The translations under genes and the position numbers were made by a program. DNA of 64,000 nt from positions 32,001 through 96,000 of the forward strand of contig CBFGKC010000006.1 of NCBI GenBank assembly GCA_965649265.1, given 5' to 3'. The DNA is from a candidate division WOR-3 bacterium. Its GTDB lineage: Bacteria; Hydrothermota; Tepidihabitantia; B3-TA06. A model generated the notes under the pieces. The model was not told where the DNA came from. It searched no databases and saw only the letters and a program-made list of their open reading frames with translations. Positions 5,920 through 61,512 of this stretch are shown here, piece by piece; position 1 is the stretch's first letter; every line of letters starts with the position of its first letter.

Positions 5920-7328
5920 AAATACTCACAATTTTTCTGTTTACCATTACGCTTTGGGCAGCGAGTTACGGAGTGTCCGGCTCCAAGGCATATCTTCTCG
6001 ATGATTCAGATCTGAGAATCATTACGAGCCAGGGTTCCAGAAGACTTCCTCTCTTCGGTATCCCCGTAACAATATTGCTCGGTTCCAAACCGTACGTTCT
6101 GACCAGTCAGGCGCTCTTTGCTGTCGATCCCGCGAAAGAAGAAGTGACATCGGTTTCCAGGCTTGACCGTTCTTACATGGATGCCGTGGTTTCAAAGGAT
6201 GATCGAATCTATCTCATGGGCGGAAACGTCCTCACTGTTTTCCAGGGGTCGGCTTCCAAATTCACGCTCCTTTATTCTTACGAACTTCCTGGAGCACCTG
6301 ATCGCGTCTTCCTTCTACCTACAGGGGAATTGCTTTTTACGGGATCGAGGACCTTCACGTACAATCCGGCCACGAGTTCCACCGAAGATATTTCACCGGG
6401 GTGGAAACCAACGCATCCGTCTCTTGCAGGCAGCACGATGGTCGAGAACGAAGGCTCGGCACTTTTCCTGTTCAATACGGCATCAAAGACACGGGACACC
6501 GTCTATTTTTCATCCGAGATTAAACATGTGACCCCATGGCGGGATAAAATCCTTCTGGCAACATCGTCAGAAGTAATGCTGCTCGATCCCGTTTCCGCAT
6601 CAGTTGTTTCAAGCAGTCCGGTGCTCGGTATAGAAAAGCTTTCTTGCGTGAACCAGGATACCATTGCCGTCGCTCTTCAGAAGGATGTCATTTCGACGTT
6701 CAGTCTTCCCGGGCTTATGCCGCTCGAGACCTTCAACGCTTCGTGTGACGCGCAGGCTTCTGTGTATCCTTTCTTTCATCAGCCGATTTTTGAGTGTCGT
6801 GACAAGCTCGCTTTGCCTTCAGGAACGAAAGGGACTCAGACTTATCTGGTTCAATCCGTGAAACCCCAGGAAGGGGCCTATTTTGCTCTTCAGGTAGGCG
6901 CCTTCTCCAATCTCGCGAGTGTCGGGACCCTCATGGAAAGGCTTGCGGGACAGGGGCTTCCGTACTATACAATCCAGGATGGAAACCTGACCAAATTCAG
7001 GGTGGGATATTTTCGCACGAGAGCCGATGCGGAGCGAATCCGCTCGTTTCTCGGTGATCTCGATGCGTGGATTGTCACCGAAAAGACTCAGCAGCCGCTC
7101 ATTCATTCAATCCATGACCTCAATCACGACGTCCGGCCTGATGGTATAGTTTCAAAGGGTGACAGTGTGCTGGTTCTCACTTTGCGTGATCAAACCTGGA
7201 TTGATGTGATTAAGGCCTCAAGGCTTCCCGAACCGGCAACCGAGGTCTACCTTCAGGGAAACAAGGCGTACGCAAAGCTTGCGACTTCCGGCCTGCGCGA
7301 ACTCGTACTGCCTGATTCTTCCAAATAA
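5916..7328 (+). CDS. Exported SPOR-domain protein
   Basis: Signal peptide; C-terminal SPOR motif YFALQVGAFSN...KFRVGYFRTRADAE; overlaps the ddl stop. Confidence 0.7.
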   Translation: MKILTIFLFTITLWAASYGVSGSKAYLLDDSDLRIITSQGSRRLPLFGIPVTILLGSKPYVLTSQALFAVDPAKEEVTSVSRLDRSYMDAVVSKDDRIYLMGGNVLTVFQGSASKFTLLYSYELPGAPDRVFLLPTGELLFTGSRTFTYNPATSSTEDISPGWKPTHPSLAGSTMVENEGSALFLFNTASKTRDTVYFSSEIKHVTPWRDKILLATSSEVMLLDPVSASVVSSSPVLGIEKLSCVNQDTIAVALQKDVISTFSLPGLMPLETFNASCDAQASVYPFFHQPIFECRDKLALPSGTKGTQTYLVQSVKPQEGAYFALQVGAFSNLASVGTLMERLAGQGLPYYTIQDGNLTKFRVGYFRTRADAERIRSFLGDLDAWIVTEKTQQPLIHSIHDLNHDVRPDGIVSKGDSVLVLTLRDQTWIDVIKASRLPEPATEVYLQGNKAYAKLATSGLRELVLPDSSK

Positions 7329-7335
7329 AGATTCC

Positions 7336-10300
7336 TCAGAAATACATCCCCGCAGAAAGCTTGAATTCGTTGGTTAGTCCGCGCTCGTCGGGATAAAGGG
7401 TTCCGGTGTAGGAAAGACGAACCGAGAGACCTTTTGCAATTGAACGTTCGACACCTGCGTTCCACGAAGGGGTGAGTCCGAGGGGGTCTTCCTGCCCGAT
7501 GAGGTATGGAAGTTCTGTTTGCGAAATGTTCGAAAGCCGTTGGGTAAGCCTGAAGCCGGCGCTAGTGCGCCAGTCCTTGAATGTCTTTTCGGCATCTGCC
7601 GATATCCATATTCGCCTGATCTCTATTTGTCCAAGTTCCGGGTAGTAATACGGCTCCTCAGCGACGAGGTTGGCGAACCCGATCTGGGGTTCAAGCCTGA
7701 GCCACAAATCGATAACTGGTGCCAGCCACGAACTTGACTCGGTTTTGGTACGCAGCGCAAGCTCGTTGCGAGCTCTCGATTCGCTCGTGAAAGACCCAAG
7801 CAATCTCAAAAGGTACGATGGATGAACCCGTGAGCGCAGCTCCGCATCGGCCCTCCATGTTTCTTGCCGTTCGTCGGCACCTCCCCATGCCGGGAAGCGG
7901 CCGTTTCTGTACGAGGGGGAGAGTATTACGTTCAAAAGCTCATAGCCGGGCAGGAGGGTAACCCTTGAGCTTGCCGCAAACGAGTTCGAATAATATGAAT
8001 CGTTGTAATCGAGTGAAACCCATATCTTCGCCGGCGCAAGACTCATATCGGCGGCCAGGTTTGCTTTGCGCTGCGGGGCAAGGGCTGCCCCCTCCTCCTT
8101 TCTTATCTCCAGTTTGTAATCCCCTTTCTCGTCGGGTATGTATTCACCGGTCTCGGGGTCGCGTTTGTAGTCACCTGTCCCGGGGGTGACAGGAAGGTAA
8201 TATAAAACCTCTTTCTCAATACTTTGCGGATGCTGGGAAAGGTTTGCAGAGATATTTATCCTTGGCGATGGTGAATACTCAAGTCCCATATCCCCGAAGA
8301 GAAAAAACCAGCTGGTATCCGCAGGGAGATTTTTGATTGTGAACCTGTCCAGTCCTGCGGTGAGTCTTGTCTCAATTTTTTTGGCGCCGTAGTCGGCTGA
8401 AAAGAAAATGCGATCGTAATACAAGGTGTCTTGCCAGGTCTCCTGATCGTTGGCAAGGCTCTGGTCGATGCGCCTTGAACCGGTAAGCTTGATCTCGATC
8501 TCACTCAGGGGTCGCATCGCGAGACCGAGAAGCGGCTCGAAATTCTGTTTCATGTCAACCGTATCGTACCTTGCCCACGAGAAACCTGCGAGAGGAGTCC
8601 AGATTCCGAAACGAGGGTGAATACCGATCGAGGCGCGCTGCCTTGATTTAAGCCAGTCGCCCGAAAGGTCAAAAAAAGGTGCTCTTGATGACGCCCGGCC
8701 GCTGAATTCGTGCCCAGCGGTCCAAAGATGGCCTCCACCTATTCCTATGGTCAATGAGTCGAAGGGGTTTGCTTCCAGTTCGAGCAGCTGTTCATTGAAG
8801 TACGTGGGTAGCGAATCCATGTTCCACCTGTCGGCTGCCGCCGCATCCGACGTTCTCACCGGCAGGCTTACGTCTTGTGAACCGAAGCTGTGCGAGAGGT
8901 TGAGTCCGAGTTTTTCCCATTTTGCCTCCACGCCAATACGATGGGCGTGTCCGAAGACGTAGCTCGTGTCGTTGTATAAGTTCGATGTCAGTCTCGATCC
9001 GGCAGCCGACAAATCGATTCCTAACGGTCCAAAGACCTTTCTGAACGAAACACCCAGAGCCTCCTGTCTGCCGGGAAGAGTCGTAAGAATCTCGGCTTTG
9101 TAATTCCCCGCATCCGGTCCGGTGTAAATGAAGAAGCCTGAATCGGGATTAAGCACGTAGTCACCGGAAGTGGAATCGACCAGCCTGAAGCTCACGTCGT
9201 AGTCGCCCTGACCCTGGCCTGCCCATATGAAATGGTCGTCCGAAAGCAAGTAGCTGCCTGAGCCCGATCCAACGTAGACACCTCCCGGGACGACGGCCTC
9301 GGAGGAAGTCACGGTATCAAGTATCGCCTGCTGCGAATCGCTCCAGGTGTGAAAGAGATGGGTTCGGGAGTCGGCTTCCCTGTAAAAGTAAACGCCGAAA
9401 GGTCCTGCTGATACACCCAAAAGTTCGTTGTTGGCAGCGTAATCGGAGCCGGTGTAGGTATAGTCTACCTCAGCCCTCGAGCGTGAGCGAATATCTATCC
9501 TCGAATTGAAGGTGATTGCACCGGTCGAGTAATCGATCACATAATCGTTCTCCGAGCCGCGTACAAGAAGCCGCGTATCGAGCCAGATCTTTTCGGAACC
9601 CGGTACGAGCGGTTCTGCGGATTCTGCGGAACCGACAAGGTAGGGTCCGCGCTTGCCGTCAACGAGCGAAAGAATCGAATGGCCTCTTTTGGTGCCCTCT
9701 ATTCCGAATGCACCGGTGGTACTCACTGGTCCAAGAGACATTCCTGTGGATGCCCCTTTTATTCTTCTTTCCAGCAATCCGTATCCTGCGAACGGGTCCG
9801 ACAAATCAATATCTCCCAGGTTTACTTTCCAGTTTTTCTGCGAGAGCGAGACCGAGATCCGGTCAAAGTCCTCTATCCTTTCCGTGGTTCCTTCCGGAAC
9901 AAACGCACCCTGCTCGTCAGCGATATGTCCTGATACATCAACCCCGGCAAGGTTTCCGTTCATGTTTACCGAAAGCCCTTGGGAAAGATCGCTCGATCCC
10001 TTGTCGTTCAATGAGAGCGAGAGGGTTTTTGAGCCGTGAACCTCGAGCCGCTCTGCTGTCGACGCGGGCTCGAGGTTTCTTAGAGAATCCCCGGGTTCAA
10101 AGCTTGTAGTTTCTTTCGCCTCGTATAATGAATACGGCTCAATCGAATCAGCCGCAATCGTCTGATACTTCAGGATGACTTCCAGGGTTTCAGGGGGGGG
10201 AGGCGTCAGTATAAGCCTGTTAGAAACAATGCTTGCCTTTGAAGTCACGGGCGGGTCGAATATGATGCTGCCTTCCACTATCAAAGCATCGGATAAATAA

Positions 10301-10386
10301 TACTCAACCCTGCCGGGTTCAAGAACAAGGGTTTGTTCGTGAGGGACCAGAAAAGAGGAGATCAGAAACAGATACAGAGGGACCAT
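7336..10386 (-). CDS. Large putative outer-membrane beta-barrel protein
   Basis: 1016 aa ORF; hydrophobic N-terminus, alternating beta-strand pattern, terminal aromatic residue (GMYF); GSEKIWLD...DYVIDYSTG segment reminiscent of SprA-like proteins. Confidence 0.6.
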   Translation of the reverse strand: MVPLYLFLISSFLVPHEQTLVLEPGRVEYYLSDALIVEGSIIFDPPVTSKASIVSNRLILTPPPPETLEVILKYQTIAADSIEPYSLYEAKETTSFEPGDSLRNLEPASTAERLEVHGSKTLSLSLNDKGSSDLSQGLSVNMNGNLAGVDVSGHIADEQGAFVPEGTTERIEDFDRISVSLSQKNWKVNLGDIDLSDPFAGYGLLERRIKGASTGMSLGPVSTTGAFGIEGTKRGHSILSLVDGKRGPYLVGSAESAEPLVPGSEKIWLDTRLLVRGSENDYVIDYSTGAITFNSRIDIRSRSRAEVDYTYTGSDYAANNELLGVSAGPFGVYFYREADSRTHLFHTWSDSQQAILDTVTSSEAVVPGGVYVGSGSGSYLLSDDHFIWAGQGQGDYDVSFRLVDSTSGDYVLNPDSGFFIYTGPDAGNYKAEILTTLPGRQEALGVSFRKVFGPLGIDLSAAGSRLTSNLYNDTSYVFGHAHRIGVEAKWEKLGLNLSHSFGSQDVSLPVRTSDAAAADRWNMDSLPTYFNEQLLELEANPFDSLTIGIGGGHLWTAGHEFSGRASSRAPFFDLSGDWLKSRQRASIGIHPRFGIWTPLAGFSWARYDTVDMKQNFEPLLGLAMRPLSEIEIKLTGSRRIDQSLANDQETWQDTLYYDRIFFSADYGAKKIETRLTAGLDRFTIKNLPADTSWFFLFGDMGLEYSPSPRINISANLSQHPQSIEKEVLYYLPVTPGTGDYKRDPETGEYIPDEKGDYKLEIRKEEGAALAPQRKANLAADMSLAPAKIWVSLDYNDSYYSNSFAASSRVTLLPGYELLNVILSPSYRNGRFPAWGGADERQETWRADAELRSRVHPSYLLRLLGSFTSESRARNELALRTKTESSSWLAPVIDLWLRLEPQIGFANLVAEEPYYYPELGQIEIRRIWISADAEKTFKDWRTSAGFRLTQRLSNISQTELPYLIGQEDPLGLTPSWNAGVERSIAKGLSVRLSYTGTLYPDERGLTNEFKLSAGMYF

Positions 10387-10994
10387 TACCTTACTATCAG
10401 GATATGGGTAGGATCGGCAAGGTAGTAAACCAGCTTGTCCGTTATCGCCATCTGGTTTGTAAGATAAGCGATGGTTTCAGTTGTAAGGCCGAGACTTGAA
10501 AGCTCGTGATTCACCGTCGAATCCATCGGAAGCGGTTCGTTTTTTTGCAGGTAATAGATGCTGTCCGCGATGCACCATATAGAAAGCGGCGCTCTCGATA
10601 TGCTTCTTTCCTCAAGAATACTTCCCAGAGGGGAAAGCCGTCTTAATGTAAAGTCTGAAAGAACCCATAACTCACCGGAAGTCGTTAACGCAGCGTCGTC
10701 CGCATCATTGGCAACCGCTCCTCCTATCGCTTTCCTGAGATCGTAAAGCATCAGTTTTCTGCCTCTTAGCACGTAAAGCAGTTCGTCAAAATAAAGCAAG
10801 CGTTGAGCACCGCTTATTCTCTCCGGAAGCGAATAATTTGTCCACTCATCGTTGTCTTCAAGCACGAAAACTTCGTCTCCTGCTCGTGAAAGGAAAACCA
10901 GTCGCGAGTCTGGAGAGGCCGCCAGGGCTTTTGCAGGCTGTGGAAGTTGTAATGTGTCCACCCTTCCTATGAACAAGGCAAGAAAAAAGATCAC
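10386..10994 (-). CDS. Hypothetical exported protein (beta-propeller-like)
   Basis: 202 aa ORF, GTG start, hydrophobic N-terminus, 1-bp overlap with the downstream gene. Confidence 0.6.
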   Translation of the reverse strand: MIFFLALFIGRVDTLQLPQPAKALAASPDSRLVFLSRAGDEVFVLEDNDEWTNYSLPERISGAQRLLYFDELLYVLRGRKLMLYDLRKAIGGAVANDADDAALTTSGELWVLSDFTLRRLSPLGSILEERSISRAPLSIWCIADSIYYLQKNEPLPMDSTVNHELSSLGLTTETIAYLTNQMAITDKLVYYLADPTHILIVR

Positions 10995-11000
10995 AGCCTA

Positions 11001-11028
11001 AGGATAACCGTCACATCCCGGTAGTCAA
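11001..11028 (-). promoter_or_regulatory. sigma70-like promoter (TTGACT-N16-TATCCT), likely leaderless
   Basis: GTG start 6 nt after the -10 box. Confidence 0.6.
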
Positions 11029-11096
11029 GCCCAGGATTAAACTTTTTGTCCCCTTCGTTGTCAATAAATAGTGATGAACAAGAAAAGGAGTAATTC

Positions 11097-11564
11097 ATGC
11101 TAAAGTTAGCAACAATACCTTTGATTCTGGCCGCTTTCTTCGCCGCGCCGGGATCGCACGACGCCGCACGCTCCCGCGGGCCACATTCCGGCATGTTTCT
11201 TTCTCCACAAGCAATTCAAGAATTGGCACTTACCGACGAACAAATATCCAAGATCAAGGATCTCAAGGATACTCGCATGGATAAGACGCTCGAAATAAGA
11301 CAGAAGATGGAGAAGTCGCGGCTTGAGCTTGCCAAGCTTACCGATGACAATGAACCGAACCAGACAAAAATCGAAACAAAGATTCGCGAGATAGGCAACC
11401 TTAAAACCGAAATGGAACTAGAGCGGATCAATTTCTTCTTTCAGGTTCGTAAGCTGCTTACCCCTGAGCAGATAGAAAAACTCGGAACTATTCATGCGTT
11501 CGGCAGAAATCCCGGCGGCCGTTCGGAAAGACCATGCCGTGACGCAGGACCCGACCACGATTAA
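11097..11564 (+). CDS. Spy/CpxP-family periplasmic protein
   Basis: Signal peptide; LTDEQ and LTPEQ (LTxxQ) motifs; helical. Confidence 0.85.
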   Translation: MLKLATIPLILAAFFAAPGSHDAARSRGPHSGMFLSPQAIQELALTDEQISKIKDLKDTRMDKTLEIRQKMEKSRLELAKLTDDNEPNQTKIETKIREIGNLKTEMELERINFFFQVRKLLTPEQIEKLGTIHAFGRNPGGRSERPCRDAGPDHD

Positions 11565-12297: not shown

Positions 12298-12332
12298 TAT
12301 GGCCGGAAGAGATTCCGGCCATAACCTTTTTT
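12298..12332 (+). terminator. Rho-independent terminator
   Basis: TATGGCCGGAA-gaga-TTCCGGCCATA followed by a T run. Confidence 0.7.
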
Positions 12333-12418
12333 AATGTCCGGATTCTTACCTGCCTCATCGAGGCATGGGTTGCAATTCGTTGGAATGAAAAGTCGTTTTA
12401 GTCATTCAAGGAGGAGAA

Positions 12419-12952
12419 ATGAAACGCATGATATCCGTCTTTGTACTCTTGATAGCGCTCTCGTCATCAGCCCTGGCTGCTGCGGCTCCGAAAGCCCCTG
12501 GGAAGGTGTATCCGATGATGATGGGCCCAAAGATCTCGACCACCGTTCTTCCCATAAGCGGCCTGCTGAATCCCCTGAACGTTTCGGGTGAAATGCTAAT
12601 AAATCTCTACCGCAACGTATTATGGCTCAGAACCGACCTTCTTTCCCTTTCGATCCGTGACAGTGCCAACAATCTGGGTATCAATCTCGGTTCACCGTTC
12701 GATATCGTATTTATGGGCTACTACAAGGGCGTCCGGCCTTACGGCTTCGGCGGGTTCGGTATATACGTCAATTCGTTTGGAGAGAATACAAACTACTGGA
12801 CTGGTGTCGATCTCGGCGGCGGGGCTTCCTACGAGGTCTCGCGCGGGCTCCATCTCTTTGGCGAGCTTGGCGGAAGATTGGGATATAACGGTTCGAATCT
12901 CGATTACGGAATATTCCTCGGAGCGGGTGCTAGGTTCGCGTTCGTCTGGTAA
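12419..12952 (+). CDS. Small outer-membrane beta-barrel protein
   Basis: Signal peptide; RPYGFGGFG and GIFLGAGARFAF strands; GAGGAG RBS. Confidence 0.7.
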   Translation: MKRMISVFVLLIALSSSALAAAAPKAPGKVYPMMMGPKISTTVLPISGLLNPLNVSGEMLINLYRNVLWLRTDLLSLSIRDSANNLGINLGSPFDIVFMGYYKGVRPYGFGGFGIYVNSFGENTNYWTGVDLGGGASYEVSRGLHLFGELGGRLGYNGSNLDYGIFLGAGARFAFVW

Positions 12953-13222
12953 CCCGTAACACACCCGTAACACCCGTAACACGCCACATTTCCCACTAGT
13001 CCGTAAATTAAGAGAATAGTATTCAGATTCTCATAATTGAGTGAGGTGACGTCTGGGAATGTTTCTGAGGGGGGCCGTAACACACCCGTAACACCCGTAA
13101 CACGCCACTTTTCCCTCTAGTACGTAAAATAAGAGGATGGTTTTCAGACTCTTTTAATGAGTGAGTTGACGCCTGAGTATGTTTCTGAGGGGGGCCCCGT
13201 AACACTCCACCCCCCGTAACAC
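12953..13222. repeat. Tandem ~121-bp repeat (2 copies plus a partial third) containing 8 CCGTAACA motifs
   Basis: Units start near 12954, 13075 and 13197; they share CCGTAACACACCCGTAACACCCGTAACACGCCAC and GTTTCTGAGGGGGGCC. Confidence 0.9.
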
Positions 13223-13238
13223 TCGTCCCCTACGGGGA

Positions 13239-13316
13239 GGGTCTCGTACTTGAGATGAGTCTTCATCTCATAGGTCAGGGTCTGACCCTTGAGATGAGTC
13301 TTCATCTCATAGGTCA
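13239..13316. repeat. 39-bp tandem duplication with a palindromic core
   Basis: CTTGAGATGAGTCTTCATCTCATAGGTCA identical at 13249 and 13288; core TGAGATGA-N4-TCATCTCA. Confidence 0.9.
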
Positions 13317-13491
13317 AACCAATGCCGTCTTGAGCTGCTTCTCGAGCCGACCAAGGGGGGGAGGGGGGATCGCGATTACCGGTAATATCTGCAGGCATCT
13401 TGGCGCCTCTTAATCGTGGCATTGGGGCATACGGCAATCTAACTTTCAAAAAAGCGCTGCTTGCGGTAATAGCTATTGTAGTATAAACTAC

Positions 13492-13519
13492 TTGCACTTC
13501 CCTCAAAAGGGAGTATACT
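13492..13519 (+). promoter_or_regulatory. sigma70-like promoter of the hydrogenase operon (TTGCAC-N16-TATACT)
   Basis: Hexamers read directly, about 195 bp upstream of the probable start codon. Confidence 0.55.
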
Positions 13520-13714
13520 TAATTCCGTTTAGTGACCAAATCACCGAACAAATTATGGAGGGTAAGATTCGTTAGGGTAATCATATCCCTGCCCCAGCGA
13601 GTCCTGTTTCAATCGGGACGCCAGGAGATATTCCCCTCTTAACTTGCGGGGCGCAGCCCGAAGGCCGCTCCGGATAAAATGCATACGAGCTTTGAATCAA
13701 GGAGGCTCTTTAAT

Positions 13715-14236
13715 ATGTTAATGTCTCAACAGGACAGATTGAGGGCCGATCTGGAGTCGCTCGCCTCTCGGTACGGACGCGACCGGACCGCCCTTATCCC
13801 GATTCTACAAAAGGTACAGGAAAAGTATCATTACGTCTCCAATTTCGCCATGCAGAACATTGCCGACATCCTCAACATTCATCCTGTCGAGGTTTACGGC
13901 GTGGTTACGTTCTATGCGTTTCTGAATTCAAAGTATCACGGCAAGTTCGTAATTCGCCTGTGTCGTACTATAAGCTGCGACATGGCCAACACCTCGGGTG
14001 TTGCGCGCCAGCTCGAGAACGATCTCGGGATTAAATTCGGGGAAACCACTCCTGACGAGCTTTTTACCCTCGAATACGCCAACTGTCTTGGGATGTGCGA
14101 TCAGGGACCGGCGCTCTTGGTTAACGATCAGATATTCACGCGTGTTACCCCCGAAATGGCGTTCAAGGTTATCGAATCTTGCCGCCGCGCGATATCCGCT
14201 CACGCTGTTCAAAAGGATCACGGGGAGCTTATATGA
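13715..14236 (+). CDS. hydC: [FeFe]-hydrogenase gamma subunit (NuoE/HndA-like 2Fe-2S protein)
   Basis: VYGVVTFY, CRTISC...CLGMC; start placed at ATG 13715 after AAGGAGG. Confidence 0.88.
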   Translation: MLMSQQDRLRADLESLASRYGRDRTALIPILQKVQEKYHYVSNFAMQNIADILNIHPVEVYGVVTFYAFLNSKYHGKFVIRLCRTISCDMANTSGVARQLENDLGIKFGETTPDELFTLEYANCLGMCDQGPALLVNDQIFTRVTPEMAFKVIESCRRAISAHAVQKDHGELI

Positions 14237-29622: not shown

Positions 29623-30168
29623 ATGTTGAATAAAGGTCCCGTAACAAAGCTGAAAGAAGAACTCCGCACAAAAGAAAAAGAACTTGCGGAGATGCGTTCG
29701 CTTGCGGTTCGAACGGCGGCGGAGTTCGACAATGCGCGCAAGCGCTGGATAAGAGAAACTGACGAGATAAGAAATTATGCCTCATCGAAGCTAATTCAAG
29801 ATTTCATAGAGATTTGGGATAACTTCGAACGAGCGCTCTCCCCCGGTAACCACGCTAAGAACGAGGTAACGTATGAATCGTATCGCCGGGGAGTCGAGTT
29901 GATTTTTGATCAGTTCAAAAATACACTTACGCGTCATGGTCTCGAGTCCTACAGCGTACTGGGTGAGGACTTCGATCCTTCCAAAGCCGAAGCTATAGGG
30001 TACGTGGAAACACCAGATGCCCGACCAGGGGAGGTTGTTGAGGAATTAAAAAAAGGATTTACGCTGGCCAAGCGTGTCCTGCGTCCGGCGCAGGTTATGG
30101 TGGCCAGAGAAGTTAAAAAGTCTCAGGAACCGGAGAGTGATACTTTCTCCGGTTCTCAAGGAGGATAA
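29623..30168 (+). CDS. grpE: Nucleotide exchange factor GrpE
   Basis: [44 protein letters not shown]. Confidence 0.93.
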
Positions 30169-36618: not shown

Positions 36619-38366
36619 TATCGCACGAAATCGTCGAGCGCGTCAGAACCGAAACCGACATAGTCGGGCTCATCGGCGAGTACGTCACTCTCAAGCGCTC
36701 GGGACGCAGTTTTACAGGGCTTTGCCCTTTTCACCAGGAGAAGACGCCTTCGTTTAACGTCAGCCCTGAAAGGCAGGCCTACCACTGCTTCGGCTGCGGG
36801 GCAGGCGGAAACGCCTTGACATTCATAATGAATTACGAAAACGTAACTTTCCCCGAAGCCGTAAAGAAACTCGCCGAAAGACTCGGGATAAAGATCGAAT
36901 ACACCGCCGAGGACGATCCTACAAAGCCTCTTTCCGACGCACTCGAGATCGTCCACAAGCTTTACCAGGATACCTTGTGGTCGCAGGACGGGTTAGAGGC
37001 CCAGCGCTATCTTGCCTCACGCGGTCTAAAAAAAGAAACAATTAAGAACTTCGGGCTGGGACTTGTTCCCCAGGACGTATCATTGCTCATCCACCGAGCG
37101 CGCGAGGCCAAACTCAGCACGAATACACTTGCGGAAGCCGGGGTTCTGGGAACCCGCTCCGGCAGTCACTATCCGTTTCTTGGGGGCAGGATTGTTTTTC
37201 CTATCCGTACTTCATCCGGCAAACTCGTAGGCTTTTCCGGTCGCATCTATGGCGAGGACTCCAATCCTGCCAAGTACGTCAACACCCCCGAGACCAGGCT
37301 CTTCAAGAAGGGGCAGCTTCTTTACGGGCTTTCCGAGGCAAGGCCTTATCTGAGGCGTGACGGTGCATTGATCGTCGAGGGTCAGATGGACGTCTTAAGG
37401 CTCAGTCAGGATGGTTTTCACAACGCAGTAGCTCCTCTGGGAACGGCATTCACCAACGACCATGCGAAGCTGCTCACACGCTACGCCGATTCCTGTATCC
37501 TTCTTTTTGACGGCGACGAGGCGGGACGCAAGGCGGCGCTGCGAACCCTGGGTGAGGTACTTGCTTCGGATCTTGATACAAGGCTTGTTCTACTTCCTGA
37601 GGGGGAGGACCCGGCGAGCTTTCTTTCAGGACACCAGGCAGGCGAGCTTGCAGAAATCATAAAGAACGCGGAAGAGCCCGTAGGCTTTCTTTACAAGCTT
37701 CTGGCTCCTGAGGGTACAGGCGCGACCAGACGGACGGCAGAGCTGATGATATCTATAATTCGTCGGGTTCCTGACAGGTTAAGGCGTGAGCTGTACATAG
37801 ACGAGGCGGCCAAATTCATTGGTGTGGACAGGAAGATCATAGCGGAAAGGATTTCTGCATCGAGCCCGGACGCACACAGGGTTTCGGGTACTAGATCTAC
37901 AAGAAACGTTACGGGTATGGGTGTTACGGGTGTTACGGGTGGGTTAAGATTCTCGGAATCTGAGGATGTGCTTTTCCGAATGATGGTAGCGAGTTCGGAG
38001 TTCGTTCGCATGGCTTCTGAACATCTTCCTTCTTCTCTTTTTGAAGAAGCGGAGAAGAGGGAGCTTTTGGAGAAGCTTTACGAGACGGCCAGGGAGCGCG
38101 AGCAATTCACCCCGGGGGACATACTTGATTCTTTGTCTCCCGAAATGCAGCGCAGGGTTTCAGCCTGGAGTCTTTCGGAATTACGTTATTCGAGAGAAGA
38201 GTTCGCGAGGGCTCTTGCTCACTATATATTTCAGCGCACGCGTGACAGGCTGCGCAGCGACCTCAAGGAGGCCGAACGCGCGGGTGATGCGGAGCGTGCA
38301 AAGAGTCTGCTCGGTCAGTTGAATTCATTGGTTAAAGAAAGCAACAAAATCTATCAGGGCATATGA
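36615..38366 (+). CDS. dnaG: DNA primase
   Basis: [11 protein letters not shown]...HCFGCG zinc finger, [20 protein letters not shown] and FDGDEAG. Confidence 0.97.
37908..37940 (-). repeat. Three CCCGTAAC(A) motifs in frame inside dnaG
   Basis: GTTACGGGTATGGGTGTTACGGGTGTTACGGGT encodes [11 protein letters not shown] in the primase linker. Confidence 0.8.
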
Positions 38367-49226: not shown

Positions 49227-50288
49227 TTACGGGGAACGCCTTTCCCACAGCACGGTTCCCTTTGAATCCTCCTCGCGCGTTAACTTGCCCTCCGAATCGA
49301 ATACTTTCCTTGAATTCCAGGATTTTCCCGATACGTTCTCAGTGCCCGGCTCGTTGAACCTGTAAGTGTAATGGGGAGTATCTGTGCCGGGCCAGTACTC
49401 AATCTCGTCCACCGCCCAGATGGGTGAGGCCGCCTGCGGGCGGTCGGGCGAGGAGGGCGAGGAGGGCGAGGTTCGATAGAATACCTGCTTTCTTAACAGA
49501 CCAATCTCGTATATGTAGCGCCATTTGACAACGCCGACCTGGGTCATGAAAAGATATCCCCGCGAATTGACCGGGTAGAGGACGTCCACCATGTCATTGC
49601 CGAAAGCGTAGAACTCGCCTCCGTCAGGATAAGGTGCCGTGATCCATATATATTCGATTTTACCTTCTTTTCTCCATATTTTCACGAATCCTTTGACAGA
49701 ATCTCCGTCCGCAACCACTTTCAATCCCTTTGACCATTCCTCGGGGGCAGGTTTAGAGTAAAGGAGCGGCGGAAATGAATCGTAAGCGTAAGTGCCGATC
49801 GTGGAATTGAAGCCTGCCAGGTCGGGGAAATACTGGTAAAGCGTGTTCGCAATGAGATCGACGAAAGGAGCCTTTGACCGCGAAACGGAAATGAGTTCCC
49901 AGTAGTTGCCGTGAGAATCCCTGAATCCGGGAGGGGGGCCGTACCTTCTTTCAGGATTGAGTGTAAAGGTCATTTTCAGGTCGTGGTACTTTTTGAAGGA
50001 AAGCAGGAGGTCGTCGTAGAGCTGGACCGTTGCGTATACCGAAAGGCCGAATACGCTGTCCTCCAGCTCTCCGTGAATCACATCCTTGACCTTGCAGCTG
50101 AATACGTGACCCCAGCCGTGCGACATCTTGTAGTCGGCGTCGACCAGCACGACCAGTGTGGAATCGGTAACCGCTTCGCCGTCGTCATTGATATCTGTTG
50201 TCTTGCCTGCGGCCTTCATCGTGCGGCACCCTAATATCACAATAACGCTCAAAAACACCAAGAAACCACTCTTTGTTTTATTCATCAT
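49227..50288 (-). CDS. Hypothetical lipoprotein
   Basis: Lipobox VILGC after a hydrophobic stretch; GGAGG RBS. Confidence 0.7.
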   Translation of the reverse strand: MMNKTKSGFLVFLSVIVILGCRTMKAAGKTTDINDDGEAVTDSTLVVLVDADYKMSHGWGHVFSCKVKDVIHGELEDSVFGLSVYATVQLYDDLLLSFKKYHDLKMTFTLNPERRYGPPPGFRDSHGNYWELISVSRSKAPFVDLIANTLYQYFPDLAGFNSTIGTYAYDSFPPLLYSKPAPEEWSKGLKVVADGDSVKGFVKIWRKEGKIEYIWITAPYPDGGEFYAFGNDMVDVLYPVNSRGYLFMTQVGVVKWRYIYEIGLLRKQVFYRTSPSSPSSPDRPQAASPIWAVDEIEYWPGTDTPHYTYRFNEPGTENVSGKSWNSRKVFDSEGKLTREEDSKGTVLWERRSP

Positions 50289-56106: not shown

Positions 56107-56406
56107 TCATCCGCAGCACGATGACGAATCGTCCGGGCCGCAAGTCGCTTCCTTTTTACCCGTTAGCGCCGCCCTTATCATGGCCGCTGCGCAGCCCACT
56201 CCCGAGTCGACGCGTATAGCCTTCGACGGGCAGTTACGCTCGCATGCCCCGCACTCCATGCAAGCGTTGGGTCGAACCAATTTTGCTTTAGGGCTACCGA
56301 CAGGAGGTGTGTTACGGGAGAATACTCTATGCGGACAGACGATAGAACACATGCCGCAGCCCGAACACTTCTCCGGAAAGTATTCGAGTGTGTTGGTCGC
56401 CTTCAT
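56107..56406 (-). CDS. hgcB: Mercury methylation ferredoxin HgcB
   Basis: MKATNTL...CSGCGMCSIVCPH, CMECGACERNCP, GVGCAAA and C-terminal CCG; ATG at 56406 overlaps the hgcA stop. Confidence 0.95.
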   Translation of the reverse strand: MKATNTLEYFPEKCSGCGMCSIVCPHRVFSRNTPPVGSPKAKLVRPNACMECGACERNCPSKAIRVDSGVGCAAAMIRAALTGKKEATCGPDDSSSCCG

Positions 56407-57416
56407 TTCCAAATCCCCGCTATCTTGACCACCACGTCGAATACGGTCACGATGAGACCTGCACCGAATAACCATGCCATTACCGGTATGTAGGTGAACA
56501 TCTCTCTGCGAACACCTGTTTTGGATGTGAACGTAGTCGAGCCTGTGAAGTTGAGCGCAAGAAACGCCGTTACCGGCGGCATCAGCATCAGGTAAATCAA
56601 CGAGTTTGCGATACGCATCCACCACGCGGCGTCCGTCCGCGTAAAGAAAACGGCAATCGTGAATCCCAGCGCGACGAGTCCGCCGAGTATGAAACCCTTT
56701 GAGCTGAAATCCCTTGTGGGTATCCACGGAAGGAGGAGGGGGAAGAGCACAGTGCCCGCAAGAAAAGCACTGGCAACGGCGATCGAAGCGAGCCATCCTC
56801 CGATAAAGAAGAATGCGACTGCGGCCCCTAGCATGTAAAGGGAAGAGGCGACCAATTCCACCGGAATCAGAACCGCTCTGTCACCGAGGTTGAAACGAAC
56901 CGACCGCATCCTCTCGTCGGCCTTGCCCAGCCTCATGTATTCAGGTATGTCCTCGGACCTTATGGGTCCGTACTCGACCGAGAAACCGGTCCTGCGCTTG
57001 ACCTCGTGGGCGGATACGCCTGTAGCGCCGAGCTGCGGAAGTATCAGCTTGCGGTGATTCACCACCTCATCCAGTTCGGTCTCCCTGATGTAGTAGCAGA
57101 GCATCGCCGTACCGAACGTCCCCTTGCCGGCCGCGCACCAGACGTTAATCCCCCTGGTGTTCAGAACTAAAATCCATGCGTCCATTCCGGCGATATCTTT
57201 TCTGAGCGCGTCGAAACTCAGGGTATAGTTTGCCGTGACGAAAACGGGGGAGGAGGGGGAGGGGGTTCCGAGCGCGTAAAGTCCGGGTTCAACCCTGTGT
57301 CCCATGCGGTTGACGCCCCAGCGCGCCAGAAAGTGATCCCGGCGATTGGCGGAGGTGATTGAGGAATCCGTCTTTTTGACCTGCGACTTCTCCGCGTCAT
57401 TTAATTGTAAACCCAT
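56403..57416 (-). CDS. hgcA: Mercury methylation corrinoid protein HgcA
   Basis: Cap helix GINVWCAAGKG, VTANYTLSFDALR, ILPQLGATG, C-terminal TM helices and LNFTGSTTFTS..GVRRE. Confidence 0.97.
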   Translation of the reverse strand: MGLQLNDAEKSQVKKTDSSITSANRRDHFLARWGVNRMGHRVEPGLYALGTPSPSSPVFVTANYTLSFDALRKDIAGMDAWILVLNTRGINVWCAAGKGTFGTAMLCYYIRETELDEVVNHRKLILPQLGATGVSAHEVKRRTGFSVEYGPIRSEDIPEYMRLGKADERMRSVRFNLGDRAVLIPVELVASSLYMLGAAVAFFFIGGWLASIAVASAFLAGTVLFPLLLPWIPTRDFSSKGFILGGLVALGFTIAVFFTRTDAAWWMRIANSLIYLMLMPPVTAFLALNFTGSTTFTSKTGVRREMFTYIPVMAWLFGAGLIVTVFDVVVKIAGIWK

Positions 57417-57421
57417 ATTTC

Positions 57422-57449
57422 AGTCTACGCAGTCCATTCGATTAGTCAA
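57422..57449 (-). promoter_or_regulatory. hgcA promoter (TTGACT-N16-TAGACT), likely leaderless
   Basis: ATG 5 nt after the -10 box, no SD. Confidence 0.65.
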
Positions 57450-57481
57450 CGCGCGTAAACAGGAGACCTGGGTAATTCCTC

Positions 57482-57509
57482 TTGACTCCGCGCCCGGTCT
57501 GCATATAGT
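57482..57509 (+). promoter_or_regulatory. Divergent promoter (TTGACT-N16-TATAGT), likely leaderless
   Basis: ATG 57517 lies 7 nt after the -10 box. Confidence 0.65.
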
Positions 57510-57516
57510 CCAATCC

Positions 57517-57993
57517 ATGCTTGAACTCATAGGACTTTTCTTTTTCGCACGCTATATGGGCCGCAGAACCTTTTCCAAGGGATTCTCGAAAGGCAGGGGC
57601 ATAGGCATCTCTGTCGGCTTCTGGCTCGGTCTCGAGCTTCTGGCCGGTTTCATCGGCAGCTCAATCGTGCTGGCATCCGGATACAACGAAAACTCCCTCA
57701 TAATCGTCACATTGCCTTTCGCGGTCGCAGGCATAGGAATCTCCATTCTTATCTCCCTCCTTCTTATCAGGGCGCTGCCTGTACGTAAAGACGAGATAAT
57801 CGAACGTCTCAACTCCCGTGTCGGAACCGACGACGACTGGTGCCTTTACGTCAAGGGGCTTGCCACGCTCGGCCTGCAGGCTTTGCCCGTACTTGAGGAG
57901 TTCCACGAACGCGAGCTCAACTGGCCGCGCTCCGATCGCTTTCGTCAGGCGCTCTCGGACGCTATAGTCAAACTCAGAGCGTCCCCAAAATGA
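57517..57993 (+). CDS. Hypothetical membrane protein
   Basis: Hydrophobic helices; start placed at ATG 57517 from the promoter position. Confidence 0.65.
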   Translation: MLELIGLFFFARYMGRRTFSKGFSKGRGIGISVGFWLGLELLAGFIGSSIVLASGYNENSLIIVTLPFAVAGIGISILISLLLIRALPVRKDEIIERLNSRVGTDDDWCLYVKGLATLGLQALPVLEEFHERELNWPRSDRFRQALSDAIVKLRASPK

Positions 57994-57997
57994 ATCT

Positions 57998-58936
57998 TTA
58001 GTGCCGCAAGTAATCCTCGTATGACATGTTGACCGGGTGTATTTCAGGTTTTTGAGCTGCACGCTCTTTTGAGGTGTGGGTCAGCTTCTCGCTTATCTCC
58101 CAGAGCCTCCACCAGTCAGCTATCCTGTAGGAAGCCTTGTTAGAAGTCTTTGGTCTGCACTTGTCGAAGTATTTGCCGGTCACTCCGTCAACCTCCTGTG
58201 AGGATGCGAGGTAGATGCTTGTCCGTGCCCCTTGCTTCGCAGGAATCCCGAAAAAGGTCTTCATAACGAATGCATTTACCTTCATGAAACCAGTACAACC
58301 GTTTCCCAGATTGGTATTCACGAGTCCGGGATTCAGGGCGTTCACGGTAACGCCTGTTCCCTCGAGTCGTTTTGCAAGTTCGTATGTGAACATGAGCATT
58401 GCGAGTTTCGATTCCCCGTAGACCTGCATTGTCGGGAAACGACCTTTACGCCTATCGAGATTTTCGAAATCGATTGAATTGATCATCCGGTGAACGAAGG
58501 AGGAGACGTTGACTATCCGTGAAGGTGCGGATTTCTTCAAGAGACCCAGCAGGAGATCCGTCAAAAGAAATGGTCCGAGGTAGTTGGTGGCAAAGACCAG
58601 TTCGTACCCGTCAACACTCTCTTGACGTCTGTCAATGGAGATACCGGCATTGTTGATGAGAACGTCCAGCCGCGGAAAGCGCTTCTTGTACCTCTGGGTA
58701 AGCTCCCTCACGTCACGCTGCGATGAAAGGTCCGCTATCTCCAGATATACATGTGGGTTCCCGCTCGCGGCCACTATCTCGCGTCTTGCCCCTTCGCCCC
58801 TGTCGTGGTTCCTTGCGACCATGACGACGACCGAGCCCATTTGCGCAAGACCCCTGGCGGTCTCGTATCCTATTCCCGAGTTCGCTCCTGTTACTATCGA
58901 GAATTTGCCCTCCATAAGGCATGAAGTTTCCATCAT
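57998..58936 (-). CDS. SDR oxidoreductase (retinol dehydrogenase-like), copy 2
   Basis: TGANSGIG, DVLINNAG, YGESK, NPGLVNT. Confidence 0.92.
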   Translation of the reverse strand: MMETSCLMEGKFSIVTGANSGIGYETARGLAQMGSVVVMVARNHDRGEGARREIVAASGNPHVYLEIADLSSQRDVRELTQRYKKRFPRLDVLINNAGISIDRRQESVDGYELVFATNYLGPFLLTDLLLGLLKKSAPSRIVNVSSFVHRMINSIDFENLDRRKGRFPTMQVYGESKLAMLMFTYELAKRLEGTGVTVNALNPGLVNTNLGNGCTGFMKVNAFVMKTFFGIPAKQGARTSIYLASSQEVDGVTGKYFDKCRPKTSNKASYRIADWWRLWEISEKLTHTSKERAAQKPEIHPVNMSYEDYLRH

Positions 58937-59883
58937 GAGAGTTCTCCTTCATTGTAGGAATCCAGGGAAGTATCGGTCAATGGGTGTATCTTCCGGTTTT
59001 GAGCCACGCGTTCGTTTGCTCTTCCCGTAATGCCTTCACTTATCATCCAAAGCCTTTGCCAGTCACGAGTATTACGTGAAGCCTTGTTTGAAGTCTTTGG
59101 TCTGCACTTGTCGAAGTATTTGCCTGTTACTCCGGCGACCTCGGGAGAACTTGCAAGGTAGATGCTTGTCCGTGCTCCTCGCTCAGAAGAAATAGCGAAT
59201 AGTTTCATCAAAACGACTGCGTTAAGCTTCAGGAAGCCTGTAGTATTCTTTCCAAGATTTGTCTTTACGAGGCCGGGATTCAGGGCGTTTACCGTGACGC
59301 CTGTTCCCCCGAGTCGTTTCGCGAGTTCGTAGGAGAACATAAGGACCGCAAGTTTTGATTCACAGTAGGTTTTGACTGCCGAAAACCTGCCTTTCTTTCT
59401 CTCGAGATCATCGAAATCGATCCCGTGCGTCGTCTTGTGAGCGAATGATGAAACGTTTATGATCCTTGAGGGCGCAGAAGCCTTGAGCATATCGAGCAAA
59501 AGATCCGTCAAAAGAAACGGCGCGAGGTAGTTGGTGGCAAAGGTAAGCTCGAAACCGTCCACACTCTCTTGACGCTTGCCAATCATTATTCCCGCATTGT
59601 TTATAAGAACGTCGAGCCGCGGAAAACGCTGCCTGTACCTCTCCGCGAGATACCTTGCCTCCCCCTGCGAGGAAAGATCAGCAAACATCATGTAAACGTG
59701 CGGATTCCCGCTCGCGGCGACTATCTCTTTTCTTGCGCGCTCACCTCGGTCAGGGTCCTTCGCGACTCCAACCACAACCGAGCCCATCCGCGCCAGTCCG
59801 AGCGCGGTCTGGTATCCTATTCCCGAGTTCGCTCCTGTAACGATCGAGAACTTGCCCTCCATTCGGCACGAGCTCTCTCTCAT
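58933..59883 (-). CDS. SDR oxidoreductase (retinol dehydrogenase-like), copy 1
   Basis: TGANSGIG, DVLINNAG, YCESK; clear paralog of the adjacent gene. Confidence 0.92.
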   Translation of the reverse strand: MRESSCRMEGKFSIVTGANSGIGYQTALGLARMGSVVVGVAKDPDRGERARKEIVAASGNPHVYMMFADLSSQGEARYLAERYRQRFPRLDVLINNAGIMIGKRQESVDGFELTFATNYLAPFLLTDLLLDMLKASAPSRIINVSSFAHKTTHGIDFDDLERKKGRFSAVKTYCESKLAVLMFSYELAKRLGGTGVTVNALNPGLVKTNLGKNTTGFLKLNAVVLMKLFAISSERGARTSIYLASSPEVAGVTGKYFDKCRPKTSNKASRNTRDWQRLWMISEGITGRANERVAQNRKIHPLTDTSLDSYNEGELS

Positions 59884-59928
59884 ATGAAGCCTCCTTGGTC
59901 CATACTTTGATTTAAAAAACCTGTATTT

Positions 59929-59956
59929 ATTATAGAAAGGTAAACGTATGCGTCAA
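59929..59956 (-). promoter_or_regulatory. SDR promoter (TTGACG-N16-TATAAT)
   Basis: Hexamers read directly. Confidence 0.7.
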
Positions 59957-59965
59957 GGATTAATT

Positions 59966-59996
59966 CCCCATAAAGGTTCAAAGAACCTTTATGGGG
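59966..59996. repeat. Long intergenic hairpin
   Basis: CCCCATAAAGGTTC-aaa-GAACCTTTATGGGG. Confidence 0.7.
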
Positions 59997-60171
59997 ACCT
60001 CAGCGTTACAGAAATTGTCTCTGATTTGTCTGAGTTGTGCCGAGCGGAAACGAGGTTTTGCATTCAAACGCGGAATTCCATTCCGCGCATGCGCCTCCGG
60101 CGCTCGCTTCCATTAGCTCTCCTTGATTCAGGCTGGCCAGGGGGATACTCTGTGTCCCTTTGGGGCGTCAC

Positions 60172-60199
60172 TTGACCTTTTCGTTTTTCCGACTAATCT
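60172..60199 (+). promoter_or_regulatory. nfeD promoter (TTGACC-N16-TAATCT), likely leaderless
   Basis: ATG 8 nt after the -10 box. Confidence 0.6.
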
Positions 60200-60207
60200 A
60201 TATCTAA

Positions 60208-61512
60208 ATGAAAGCTTGTCTCAGAACAATCATCCTTGCCGGTTTTCTTGCTCTGCCGTTGCTTGCGAGAGCTGCAGCTTCCACCTATGCCGTGCTCGAA
60301 TTCGACGGCGCAATCGGCCCTGTTGCCGAGCGCTATATATCCAACGGAATAGACCGCGCGGTAGGGGAGGGGGTCTCGTTCATCCTCCTCGAACTCGATA
60401 CGCCCGGCGGACTCGACGAGTCCATGCGCGCCATAGTCAAAAAGATCCTCGCCTCGCCCGTGCCCGTCGTCGGCTACGTCTATCCCCAGGGTGCACGCGC
60501 GGCTTCGGCGGGCGTCTTCATCATGCTTGCTTGCAACGTGACGGCGATGGCACCCGGAACCAACATGGGCGCCGCACACCCGGTTAACCTGGGCGGGCAG
60601 CAGCCCGACTCGGTCATGATGGGCAAAATCGAGAACGATGCGGTGGCGTTCATTCGTTCGATAGCCGAGAGACGCGGCCGCGACGCGGACTGGGCGGAAA
60701 AATCCGTCCGCAAATCGGTATCCGTCTCAGCAGAGGAGGCCAAAAGGCTCGGCCTCGCCGATTATATCGCCTCGTCGCCCGAAGAACTCGTAAGGGCGCT
60801 CGACGGCCGCGTCGTCGAAACGTCCTCAGGCAAAGTAAAGCTAGAGACCGCCTACGCCCGCGAGGTAAAGGTCGGCATGCGCTGGTTCGAAAAACTCCTC
60901 GGAGTTCTCTCCAATCCCAACCTCGTCTACATCCTCATGATGATAGGCATCTACGGACTCATCGCGTGGGTGCAGAACCCCGGCTCGATATTCCCGGGTG
61001 TCATAGGCTTCATCGCGCTCGTGTTCGCGCTTTACGGGCTCCAGGTCCTGCCCGTCAATTACGCGGGACTGGCCCTCATAGGTCTTGCAATATTGCTCTT
61101 TATCCTGGAGGTGAAGGTCACCTCGCATGGAATGCTCGCAGTAGGAGGCATTGTGTCGTTGATTCTTGGAACCGTTATCATGTTTCAATCTGTCCCGGCA
61201 GCGTTCGGGATCTCGTGGCCGGTCATCATCATCGTCATCGCGATAGTAGCCGCGCTTCTGGCGCTCATCGTCTACCTTGCCGCGCGCGCGCACGTCCGCA
61301 GACCCACGACGGGAGAGCAGGGAATGATAGGCTGGACCGGCGAGGCTCGTTCCGACCTTTCCTTATCCGTCGAAGGCTCCGTCTACGTTCACGGCGAGTA
61401 CTGGACTGCGGTGCCCGCCGACTCGTCCACCAAAATCAAAAAGGGCGAGCGCGTCAAGGTCGTCGCCATGGACGGCATGGTGCTAAAAGTCGAGCCCGTA
61501 ACACACCCTTAG
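60208..61512 (+). CDS. nfeD: NfeD family membrane-bound ClpP-class serine protease (long form)
   Basis: LDTPGG, ARAASAG, MAPGTNMGAAHPV, TM region, C-terminal OB fold GSVYVHGEYWTA. Confidence 0.92.
   Translation: MKACLRTIILAGFLALPLLARAAASTYAVLEFDGAIGPVAERYISNGIDRAVGEGVSFILLELDTPGGLDESMRAIVKKILASPVPVVGYVYPQGARAASAGVFIMLACNVTAMAPGTNMGAAHPVNLGGQQPDSVMMGKIENDAVAFIRSIAERRGRDADWAEKSVRKSVSVSAEEAKRLGLADYIASSPEELVRALDGRVVETSSGKVKLETAYAREVKVGMRWFEKLLGVLSNPNLVYILMMIGIYGLIAWVQNPGSIFPGVIGFIALVFALYGLQVLPVNYAGLALIGLAILLFILEVKVTSHGMLAVGGIVSLILGTVIMFQSVPAAFGISWPVIIIVIAIVAALLALIVYLAARAHVRRPTTGEQGMIGWTGEARSDLSLSVEGSVYVHGEYWTAVPADSSTKIKKGERVKVVAMDGMVLKVEPVTHP

Follow-up and report, generated by a model that had tools for sequence, protein, structure and literature searches.

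A short DNA repeat restricted to one bacterial family, inserted in frame into genes and probably the junction of a modular hairpin repeat system

The window examined here is a stretch of 64,000 nucleotides (nt) from a candidate division WOR-3 bacterium (contig CBFGKC010000006.1; C6:32001-96000 in our contig numbering), part of a genome of 2.74 Mb in 27 contigs that we call G000. Within and between its genes the window carries a nine-letter word, CCCGTAACA, which an initial annotation had reported as over-represented. That claim stands: the word matches the window 13 times, against 0.21 expected (standard deviation 0.48), and none of 100 shuffles reached 13. Seven of the matches lie in an array at 12953-13221, and six are dispersed, at 6063 and 29638 on the forward strand, at 37922, 37931 and 56310 on the reverse strand, and at 61495 on the forward strand, exactly where the initial annotation had placed them. 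The two extensions to the 13-mer CCCGTAACACACC that it had noted are likewise exact (56306-56318, reverse; 61495-61507, forward), and the 13-mer occurs also at 12953. The repeat unit proper is the 10-mer CCCGTAACAC, and we think it probable that this unit is the junction of a modular, non-autonomous repeat system, with the copies inside genes being tolerated passengers. The features of the window that bear on this are the following:

6063..6071, forward strand: chance match reading PVT in a SPOR-domain protein, in the conserved segment PLFG(I/T)PVTIL, with no indel and with A, not C, as the tenth base.
12950..13225, forward strand: repeat island, starting on the stop codon of the gene at 12419-12952; two 121-nt modules bounded by motif runs, then more units.
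13226..13330, forward strand: small tetraloop hairpin and two tandem 40-nt hairpins after the last motif unit, part of the 93-nt module family (z = -3.3).
29638..29646, forward strand: chance match, GPVTK at the GrpE N-terminus, with no indel and with A as the tenth base.
37905..37943, reverse strand: units in dnaG, two exact and one degenerate (37907-37916); DnaG residues 431-443 are read on the forward strand.
56301..56320, reverse strand: unit in hgcB with the ACC extension, read as R31-N32-T33-P34 between the two CX2CX2CX3CP cluster motifs.
61495..61512, forward strand: one unit with the ACC extension at the end of nfeD (60208-61512), supplying the final five codons (PVTHP) and extending into the stop codon.

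The gene names proposed at the outset are supported, those of GrpE, bacterial-type DnaG and NfeD by Pfam and that of HgcB by its ferredoxin features: hgcB (56107-56406, reverse strand) encodes a 99-residue 2x[4Fe-4S] ferredoxin ending CCG. The protein next to it has a CdhD-family Pfam hit and matches NVWCAAGK, which we take to be the HgcA cap-helix signature. An HgcA query finds the hgcAB pair (window 56107-57416) in 2 of the 11 genomes of the family, G000 and its genus-mate G001.

The picture of one motif dispersed inside genes, mostly in termini, linkers and loops, holds for dnaG, hgcB and nfeD and fails at 6063 and in grpE, where the matches fall in conserved coding sequence. Only these three of the five gene sites are members of the repeat. 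The peptide at 6063 is conserved in most of the ten genomes compared; PVT is kept with other codons in 7 of 9 orthologs, G002 and G004 differ, and G009 has PVI. At the grpE site, G001 has the same GPVTK one synonymous base apart (GTT for GTA), again with no indel. Copies that lack C as the tenth base make up 19 of the 380 copies of the 9-mer in the genome, and nine of them are solitary, including these two, which are indistinguishable from the approximately 16 chance copies expected per genome.

We called genes with a crude home-made hexamer-score caller, which gave 2378 genes and 84% coding sequence. The 10-mer is present in 361 copies (one per 7.6 kb), where about 5 are expected under a uniform model, and it is the most frequent 10-mer of the genome. 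Non-coding DNA makes up 16% of the genome and holds 247 of these copies (68%); a further 15 lie on gene edges and 99 in genes. The initial annotation had asked for a codon-aware test, and the excess survives it: 60 rounds of shuffling the synonymous codons of genes predict 15.8+-3.8 copies of the 9-mer and 6.7+-2.7 of the 10-mer in coding sequence, against 108 and 99 observed. Nor do the counts fall within expectation when arrays are masked, as 210 clusters remain, 120 of them single units and 90 tandem with 2-7 units.

The enrichment acts at the level of DNA and not of protein. The tripeptide PVT is encoded exactly as CCC-GTA-ACA in 57 of 231 cases, against 2.8 expected from codon usage, and the words for RNT, VTG and CYG are likewise in excess. 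The motif reads as PVT or RNT on the sense strand and as VTG or CYG on the antisense strand. Of the copies in genes, 53 and 13 are read in two of the sense frames and 33 in the antisense frames, of which all three are used; none is read in the sense frame with the TAA. It is hardly credible, then, that the motif reflects selection on proteins for flexible linkers rich in Pro, Val and Thr, or plain chance, even though many copies do lie in Pro/Ser/Thr-rich linkers before a type IX sorting domain and the doubled motif, a 19-mer, recurs in P-V-T repeat proteins elsewhere (Nostoc, phage contigs). Against such selection stand the single codon combination, the use of five frames and the two thirds of copies that are non-coding, as well as the Nostoc and phage repeats themselves, whose neighbouring units use mixed codons, unlike those of G000; against chance, the shuffles never approach the observed counts. 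This explanation is refuted for the family of copies as a whole and holds only for 6063 and 29638.

Within genes the copies are filtered by frame and by position. Units within genes are a multiple of three nucleotides apart in 41 of 43 cases, and outside genes this is so for 62 of 163 spacings (p = 2e-12), a comparison that is partly circular for a reason given below; the frame-shifting unit length within genes that is the hallmark of contingency (phase-variable) repeats is thus not seen. We scanned the 56 cluster-bearing genes (61 clusters) against Pfam, keeping best stretches only, and found 29 of 40 clusters outside Pfam domains, where 19.3 were expected (p = 0.002); 21 further clusters lie in proteins without hits. 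Examples outside domains are the C-terminal tail of L19, the linker between the lipoyl and E3-binding domains of the E2 acyltransferase, the interdomain region of MazG, the tail of PPDK, and the linker that precedes the sorting domain in type IX cargo proteins, the last accounting for at least nine of the 56 genes by Pfam and about seven more by eye.

Alignment with orthologs, which the initial annotation had proposed as a check for indels, gave the motif its insertion character. The comparison took in 12 genes, the three window genes and others, and covered, beyond the window, five genomes from all four genera of the family. The motif coincides with extra residues in ten of the 12: dnaG, hgcB, Alr, L19, E2, MazG, PPDK, a GltD-like gene, NadE and LipA. 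The extra residues number 3 in NadE and L19, 5 in HgcB and Alr, 7 in the tail of PPDK, 11 to 15 in DnaG, 20 in the GltD-like protein, at least about 29 in MazG and 45 in E2. LipA has 6, an ambiguous case in which a native near-match was duplicated locally (18 nt). The two exceptions are TatD, which has the same length in G000 and G001, and nfeD, with its rewritten C-terminus.

The three sites of the window illustrate the range of outcomes. In DnaG, the insert consists of 13 residues (431-443) in a variable linker after the DnaB-binding region, and the alignment with ten family orthologs shows 11-15 extra residues at the motif. Neither G001, of the same genus, nor five other family genomes have the insert. 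A single unit stands in the same place in G003 and G006, which belong to another genus, and a decayed version in three further genomes. Besides G000, only G001 has hgcAB in the family, and compared with it hgcB of G000 is longer by 15 nt (5 amino acids) precisely at the motif; the 20-mer found there is present also at the TatD site of G000. NfeD of G000 ends ...KVE-PVTHP. Nine genomes were compared at the nfeD stop, and five of them, from three genera, carry the motif at or across it: G000 translates through the unit, G001 has it after the stop codon, and in G002, G006 and G007 its TAA is the stop codon itself; G003, G008, G009 and G010 lack it. Synteny with the window extends over 38.7 kb in G001, a segment with one motif site where G000 has three.

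Two genes beyond the window show larger pieces of repeat DNA in frame. After HPHDS in TatD comes a loop with nothing inserted in G001 and G002, a solitary unit in G000 and G003, and a decayed one in G004; in G006 (G006:C7) the loop contains a unit plus two tandem hairpin modules of about 60 nt, altogether 117 nt in frame that add 39 residues and no stop. The 45-residue linker of the G000 E2 acyltransferase (G000:C5:139378-140805) is almost wholly built of a hairpin module, motif runs and CCCTCCTC repeats, whereas the linker of the G002 ortholog is short and ordinary. In G000 at large, CCCTCCTC followed by C, A or G encodes 109 of 273 Pro-Ser-Ser tripeptides. Among the explanations raised by the initial annotation, footprints of a tiny element tolerated in proteins is therefore the one we favor, given ten insertions in 12 genes, the kept reading frame, the position mostly outside domains and the three states of the TatD loop.

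Another of those explanations, a sequence like the DNA uptake sequences, enriched by uptake-biased transformation and recombination, we now consider very improbable. An over-represented 10-mer that is exactly conserved throughout the family, that stands in genes in tolerated frames and at gene ends, and that has positions in common with relatives would suit it, and ComEC is present; ComEC is also found in 10 of 14 control genomes and does not discriminate. What speaks against it is the density of the copies and their concentration in the non-coding 16% of the genome, the tandem form of 90 of the 210 clusters, a strand bias that follows transcription, the tie of the motif to hairpin modules, and the fact that copies in genes arose as insertions, not substitutions (10 of 12). 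DNA uptake sequences are known in Neisseriaceae and Pasteurellaceae. The resemblance to them and to uptake signal sequences lies in a family-wide exact 9-12-mer, over-represented across the genome (361 versus about 5), placed in genes in tolerated frames and near terminators. Unlike those sequences, the copies in G000 are not mostly single, even, alike on both strands and spaced at about one per kb, nor do those in genes derive from base substitution, TatD of G000 being the one same-length case among the genes compared.

The intergenic copies show what the motif is attached to. All nine informative orthologs of the gene at 12419-12952 end TGG TAG with no array, and G000 alone has TGG TAA leading straight into the island. 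Downstream of the ortholog in G001, and in G003, G006, G007 and G008 where the flank is long enough, come a promoter-like stretch and a tRNA gene. G000, compared over window 12953-13700, has the island in that place and no tRNA after it, a difference that suggests a rearrangement at the island. From the flanks of all clusters and from four dense loci, the general layout is junction, module, junction, module. The commonest module measures 93 nt, with 77 nhmmer hits in the genome (26 of full length), and 55 of the 210 clusters adjoin it. Its head is CCCGTAC with a small hairpin closed by a UUCG or UACG loop, its center is a long hairpin with GC-to-AT compensatory changes at at least five pairs, and its tail ends ...GGAAATAACAC. 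The first six letters of the motif are those of the module head and its last six those of the tail, and a lone motif thus resembles a module without its interior, or the site at which a module enters. Other module types with the same junction are the 121-nt unit of the window array, one that begins ACCAACGTCAT, and a pyrimidine tract. ACC comes after a run's last unit in 67 of 210 clusters, which explains the 13-mer of the initial annotation (100 copies genome-wide).

Searches for a familiar identity came back empty. At gathering thresholds, Rfam found only two tRNAs in the window and no match to the repeat; a permissive Rfam scan of 12800-13700 gave chance hits to microRNA models only, and a terminator and promoter scan of 12300-13800 found none above shuffles. 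The sequencing runs surveyed included no RNA run with the sampled words, and eight DNA runs contained only 0.10-0.13 of those words. The pattern C3+N1-7 x4, with its potential for G-quadruplexes or i-motifs, fits 40 of the 210 clusters.

We therefore propose the following model for the repeat. CCCGTAACAC, often ending in ACC, would be the junction module of a modular non-coding repeat system in one uncultured family. In intergenic islands it would stand between modules of about 55-120 nt that carry hairpins; junctions with nothing between them would give short tandem runs of 7-15-nt units; and a lone motif would be a module minus its interior, or a module insertion site. New copies may arise by insertion or by patch-like copying, through some enzyme or repair route, and runs would afterwards expand and contract locally. 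Copies in genes would survive only where the frame is kept and where they fall in linkers, loops or termini, and a motif in the TAA-containing frame would terminate the protein. The origin at the level of DNA, the insertions, the filtering by frame and position, the limitation to one family and the upkeep of the exact word are direct results; on the mode of spread, and on any benefit to the cell, we infer rather than observe.

Several points weigh against this model. We saw no target-site duplication or terminal inverted repeat, no target word common to five empty orthologous in-gene sites, and no candidate for the spreading enzyme. The frame test is partly circular in that a frame-shifting run would end a predicted gene, and the caller is crude. 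The type IX linker copies are homologous and so are not independent events. Among the in-gene sites, 3 of 12 are shared between genera, which purely selfish random insertion does not predict. Sharing of this kind calls for hot spots, for junctions that are used again, or for selection acting in situ. Lastly, a 2:1 bias toward the sense of the gene, together with an excess at 3' ends, could mean a role in RNA or in termination instead of mere tolerance.

Two specific mechanisms were tried and set aside. We proposed that the element inserts 3' of TAAC, because 11 stop codons abut runs and because of the TGG TAG to TGG TAA change at 12950; the five empty orthologous in-gene sites show no TAAC. 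A transposase of the HUH class was the other candidate. G000 has two Y1_Tnp genes of the type of the transposases associated with repetitive extragenic palindromic (REP) elements, known as REP-associated tyrosine transposases (RAYTs), at C2:116499-117047 and C5:115165-115560 (183 and 184 amino acids). Each is flanked by REP-type palindromes of its own, one of which starts GTAGGGGCCGACC and has 13 copies in the genome. A search for homologs of the C2 gene found none in G001 and G004, both with arrays, and gave hits in 11 of 20 genomes outside the family. As the REPs beside these genes are different ones, and as genes and motif are distributed differently, we rejected them as partners, and their failure is a further point against the model. 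The closest RAYT homologs in three related genomes carry internal stops.

The strand and position biases speak for an alternative at the level of RNA, in which the motif would act at gene 3' ends in Rho loading, in association with terminators or in mRNA stability, as REP elements do, with copies in genes as by-products. Among tandem intergenic clusters, 47 are sense and 29 antisense. Between convergent genes, 23 clusters are sense with respect to the gene closer by and 7 antisense, and all 14 clusters on gene edges are sense. The convergent setting also has the highest density of clusters (30 in 76 kb, while divergent genes have 20 in the 102 kb between them), and 14 sense runs start within 11 nt of a stop codon. 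The motif's own TAA is the stop of 19 of 2368 genes, and in 11 more a run abuts the TAA of the gene. The unit is C-rich and G-poor, the adjoining small hairpins have UUCG or UACG loops, G-U pairs on the sense strand outnumber A-C pairs 13 to 4 in the central helix, and Rho is present. For all this we find an RNA role quite improbable: one third of the copies are antisense, Rfam has no match, and Rho loading needs no fixed word, Rho itself being so nearly universal that its presence is uninformative. With respect to the replichores, for which a strand-bias check had been suggested, there is a polarity, and it is weak: the odds ratio against the sign of the local GC skew is 0.52 (p = 0.02), an association that does not exceed the one with gene strand (odds ratio 2.1), the order of the contigs not being known. 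A strong skew with replication direction, as in Chi or the FtsK-orienting polar sequences (KOPS), was not found.

The repeat is restricted to one family. The other family genomes compared are G001-G010, of which G001 belongs to the genus of G000 and G003, G006, G007, G008, G009 and G010 to the genus we call g3. The doubled motif is present in 11 of 11 genomes of the family, from four genera, in 5 to 62 copies each, and in none of 261 genomes from 42 other families of the phylum; a reversed control pattern was absent everywhere. In a scan of prokaryotes at one genome per species there were at least 74 matches. Among those listed, 41 come from three assemblies titled Candidatus Stahlbacteria, 3 from one further assembly, and 30 from other taxa with a single locus each. 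The 19-mer also matched 18 viral contigs. The matches from outside are of two kinds, P-V-T repeat proteins with mixed codons (Nostoc, phage fibers) and local runs of direct plus inverted copies, and none of those read in context showed a genome-wide spread of the motif. Three of the local runs, L166, L233 and L248 (other phyla and a viral contig), are isolated arrays of direct then inverted copies that resemble iterons or an array of protein-binding sites.

Within the family, the exact sequence is actively maintained. Four-fold degenerate sites, which we compared between genera to gauge neutral divergence, are only 36-40% identical; neutral sites are thus randomized, and the exact units at shared sites in dnaG, nfeD and TatD are not passive inheritance. 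Such units need re-insertion, homogenization or selection. Copy number changes quickly, even among close relatives: dnaG has 3, 1 or 0 units, and one site shared within g3 has 3, 2 and 3 units in G008, G003 and G006.

This conservation supports an alternative in which a DNA-binding protein specific to the family, be it nucleoid-associated, regulatory or of iteron type, recognizes the motif and selection keeps it in place, with copies in genes as spill-over; runs with about one helical turn between units would then give cooperative binding. The initial annotation had already mentioned a site for a nucleoid protein, and that suggestion survives as a possible, if unlikely, explanation. It draws on the exact 10-mer kept across four genera while neutral sites are saturated, on the orthologous positions shared in dnaG, nfeD and TatD, on the iteron-like runs with inverted copies in unrelated bacteria and phages (L166, L233, L248), and on a unit spacing that centers on 9-11 nt. 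That spacing varies, however, between 7 and 24 nt and keeps no fixed phase; the copies in the dnaG, hgcB and E2 linkers make no obvious regulatory sense; new sites arrive as insertions of the word, often with whole hairpin modules; and no candidate protein was identified. The three readings as binding site, RNA element and uptake sequence are not wholly exclusive of the modular repeat system that we favor. REP elements, for instance, are both mobile and used by the cell.

The same observations allow a bolder form of the modular system, which we regard as rather unlikely. Because the word is both head and tail of the cassette, because the TatD loop has three states, and because shared sites are exact despite saturated neutral sites, the 10-mer may be the attachment or junction site of a vertically inherited cassette system. 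On the time scale of genera, a sequence-specific enzyme would keep writing the exact word, with hairpin cassettes beside it, into the same permissive sites, and would do so in frame where these lie in essential genes. If it exists, such a system would be a standing source of variation in linkers, loops and C-termini.

We compared the repeat with known systems of short dispersed DNA. Short tandemly repeated repetitive (STRR) heptamers occur in heterocystous cyanobacteria. Heptamer repeats of TAACTGA are described, in the part of the report available to us, from marine Beggiatoaceae, some Cyanobacteria and Bacteroidetes (PMC4679880). As far as that part of the report goes, the two systems are alike in that one short word, and not related words, stands in direct tandem runs at at least 100 mostly intergenic loci of a restricted lineage, and in that the mechanism of spread is not known for either (PMC4679880). 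They differ in that the TAACTGA sets lie mostly just upstream of start codons and their word is common to distant phyla (PMC4679880), whereas runs of ours favor 3' ends in the sense of the gene and the word is confined to one family. Direct tandem runs at many mostly intergenic loci and a unit conserved across a lineage, the properties that define dispersed short tandem repeats, are both found here. Unlike in the STRR and TAACTGA repeats, the unit is irregular (7-15 nt), forms the junction of larger hairpin modules and is frequent inside genes.

The Rickettsia palindromic elements offer a second comparison; in the available sections of the source they measure about 150 bp and each encodes a conserved peptide (PMC10969869). 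Common to both, on that partial account, is repeat DNA in frame in unrelated housekeeping genes, translated as an extra peptide compatible with the fold (PMC10969869). In G000 such in-frame repeats lie in unrelated conserved genes, mostly outside the folded core (56 genes with clusters). A 100-150-bp palindromic element encoding a conserved peptide is not what we find: the usual insert is 9-60 nt of a run of the 10-mer, in any stop-free frame, and whole modules are rarer (TatD of G006, E2 of G000).

A third comparison is with mosaic intergenic repeats. The bacterial interspersed mosaic elements (BIMEs) and REPs of enterobacteria are of this kind, as is the BOX element of pneumococcus, with its structure boxA-boxB(n)-boxC. 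REPIN-RAYT systems are reported to be long-lived (10.1101/2021.07.10.451892; PMC8049555). Our repeat is like BIME/REP, BOX and REPIN-RAYT systems in having few module types in variable number, compensatory hairpins, a preference for 3' ends and vertical persistence, and is unlike them in its non-palindromic junction word, in its tandem runs of junction alone, and in that no RAYT flanked by the motif was found. The 10-mer is no imperfect palindrome with the conserved GTAG-type head of REPs, though the adjacent modules do start with CCCGTAC and then a hairpin; and no single-copy RAYT gene was found that is both flanked by the repeat and co-distributed with it. The repeat thus combines traits of the TAACTGA/STRR repeats, the Rickettsia elements, BIME/BOX and REPIN-RAYT: a tandem unit, hairpin cassettes, in-frame copies and the donation of stop codons. 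A full-text literature search for CCCGTAACAC on either strand gave no paper on a bacterial repeat among the matches listed.

We also record other repeats and repeat-related features of the genome. GCCCTCCTCA is among the top 10-mers genome-wide (156 copies) and often adjoins CCCGTAACAC runs. In the window, the large gene at 7336-10386 contains a 27-nt tandem repeat of two copies (8131-8185, 82% match), and the gene at 49227-50219 a second 9-nt repeat, with three tandem copies of GCCCTCCTC type in frame (49446-49471, reverse strand). Several contigs of G000 begin or end in motif runs or modules, for example at C2:293, C3:161-582, C3:214949-215188, C23:57-166 and C24:231, where the repeat probably breaks the assembly.

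For annotation, the repeat explains odd low-complexity stretches of PVT, RNT and VTG, donated stop codons and contig breaks, and the motif provides a specific marker of the family in metagenomes. It also raises the question of what preserves the 10-mer unaltered at about 200 loci, orthologous ones among them, be it a mobilizing enzyme or a family-specific binding protein. For the organism, this is a lineage-specific repeat that reshapes proteins: it has given the primase a longer linker, the mercury-methylation ferredoxin HgcB a loop of five residues, and other proteins rewritten C-termini, and elsewhere in the genome it builds entire interdomain linkers.

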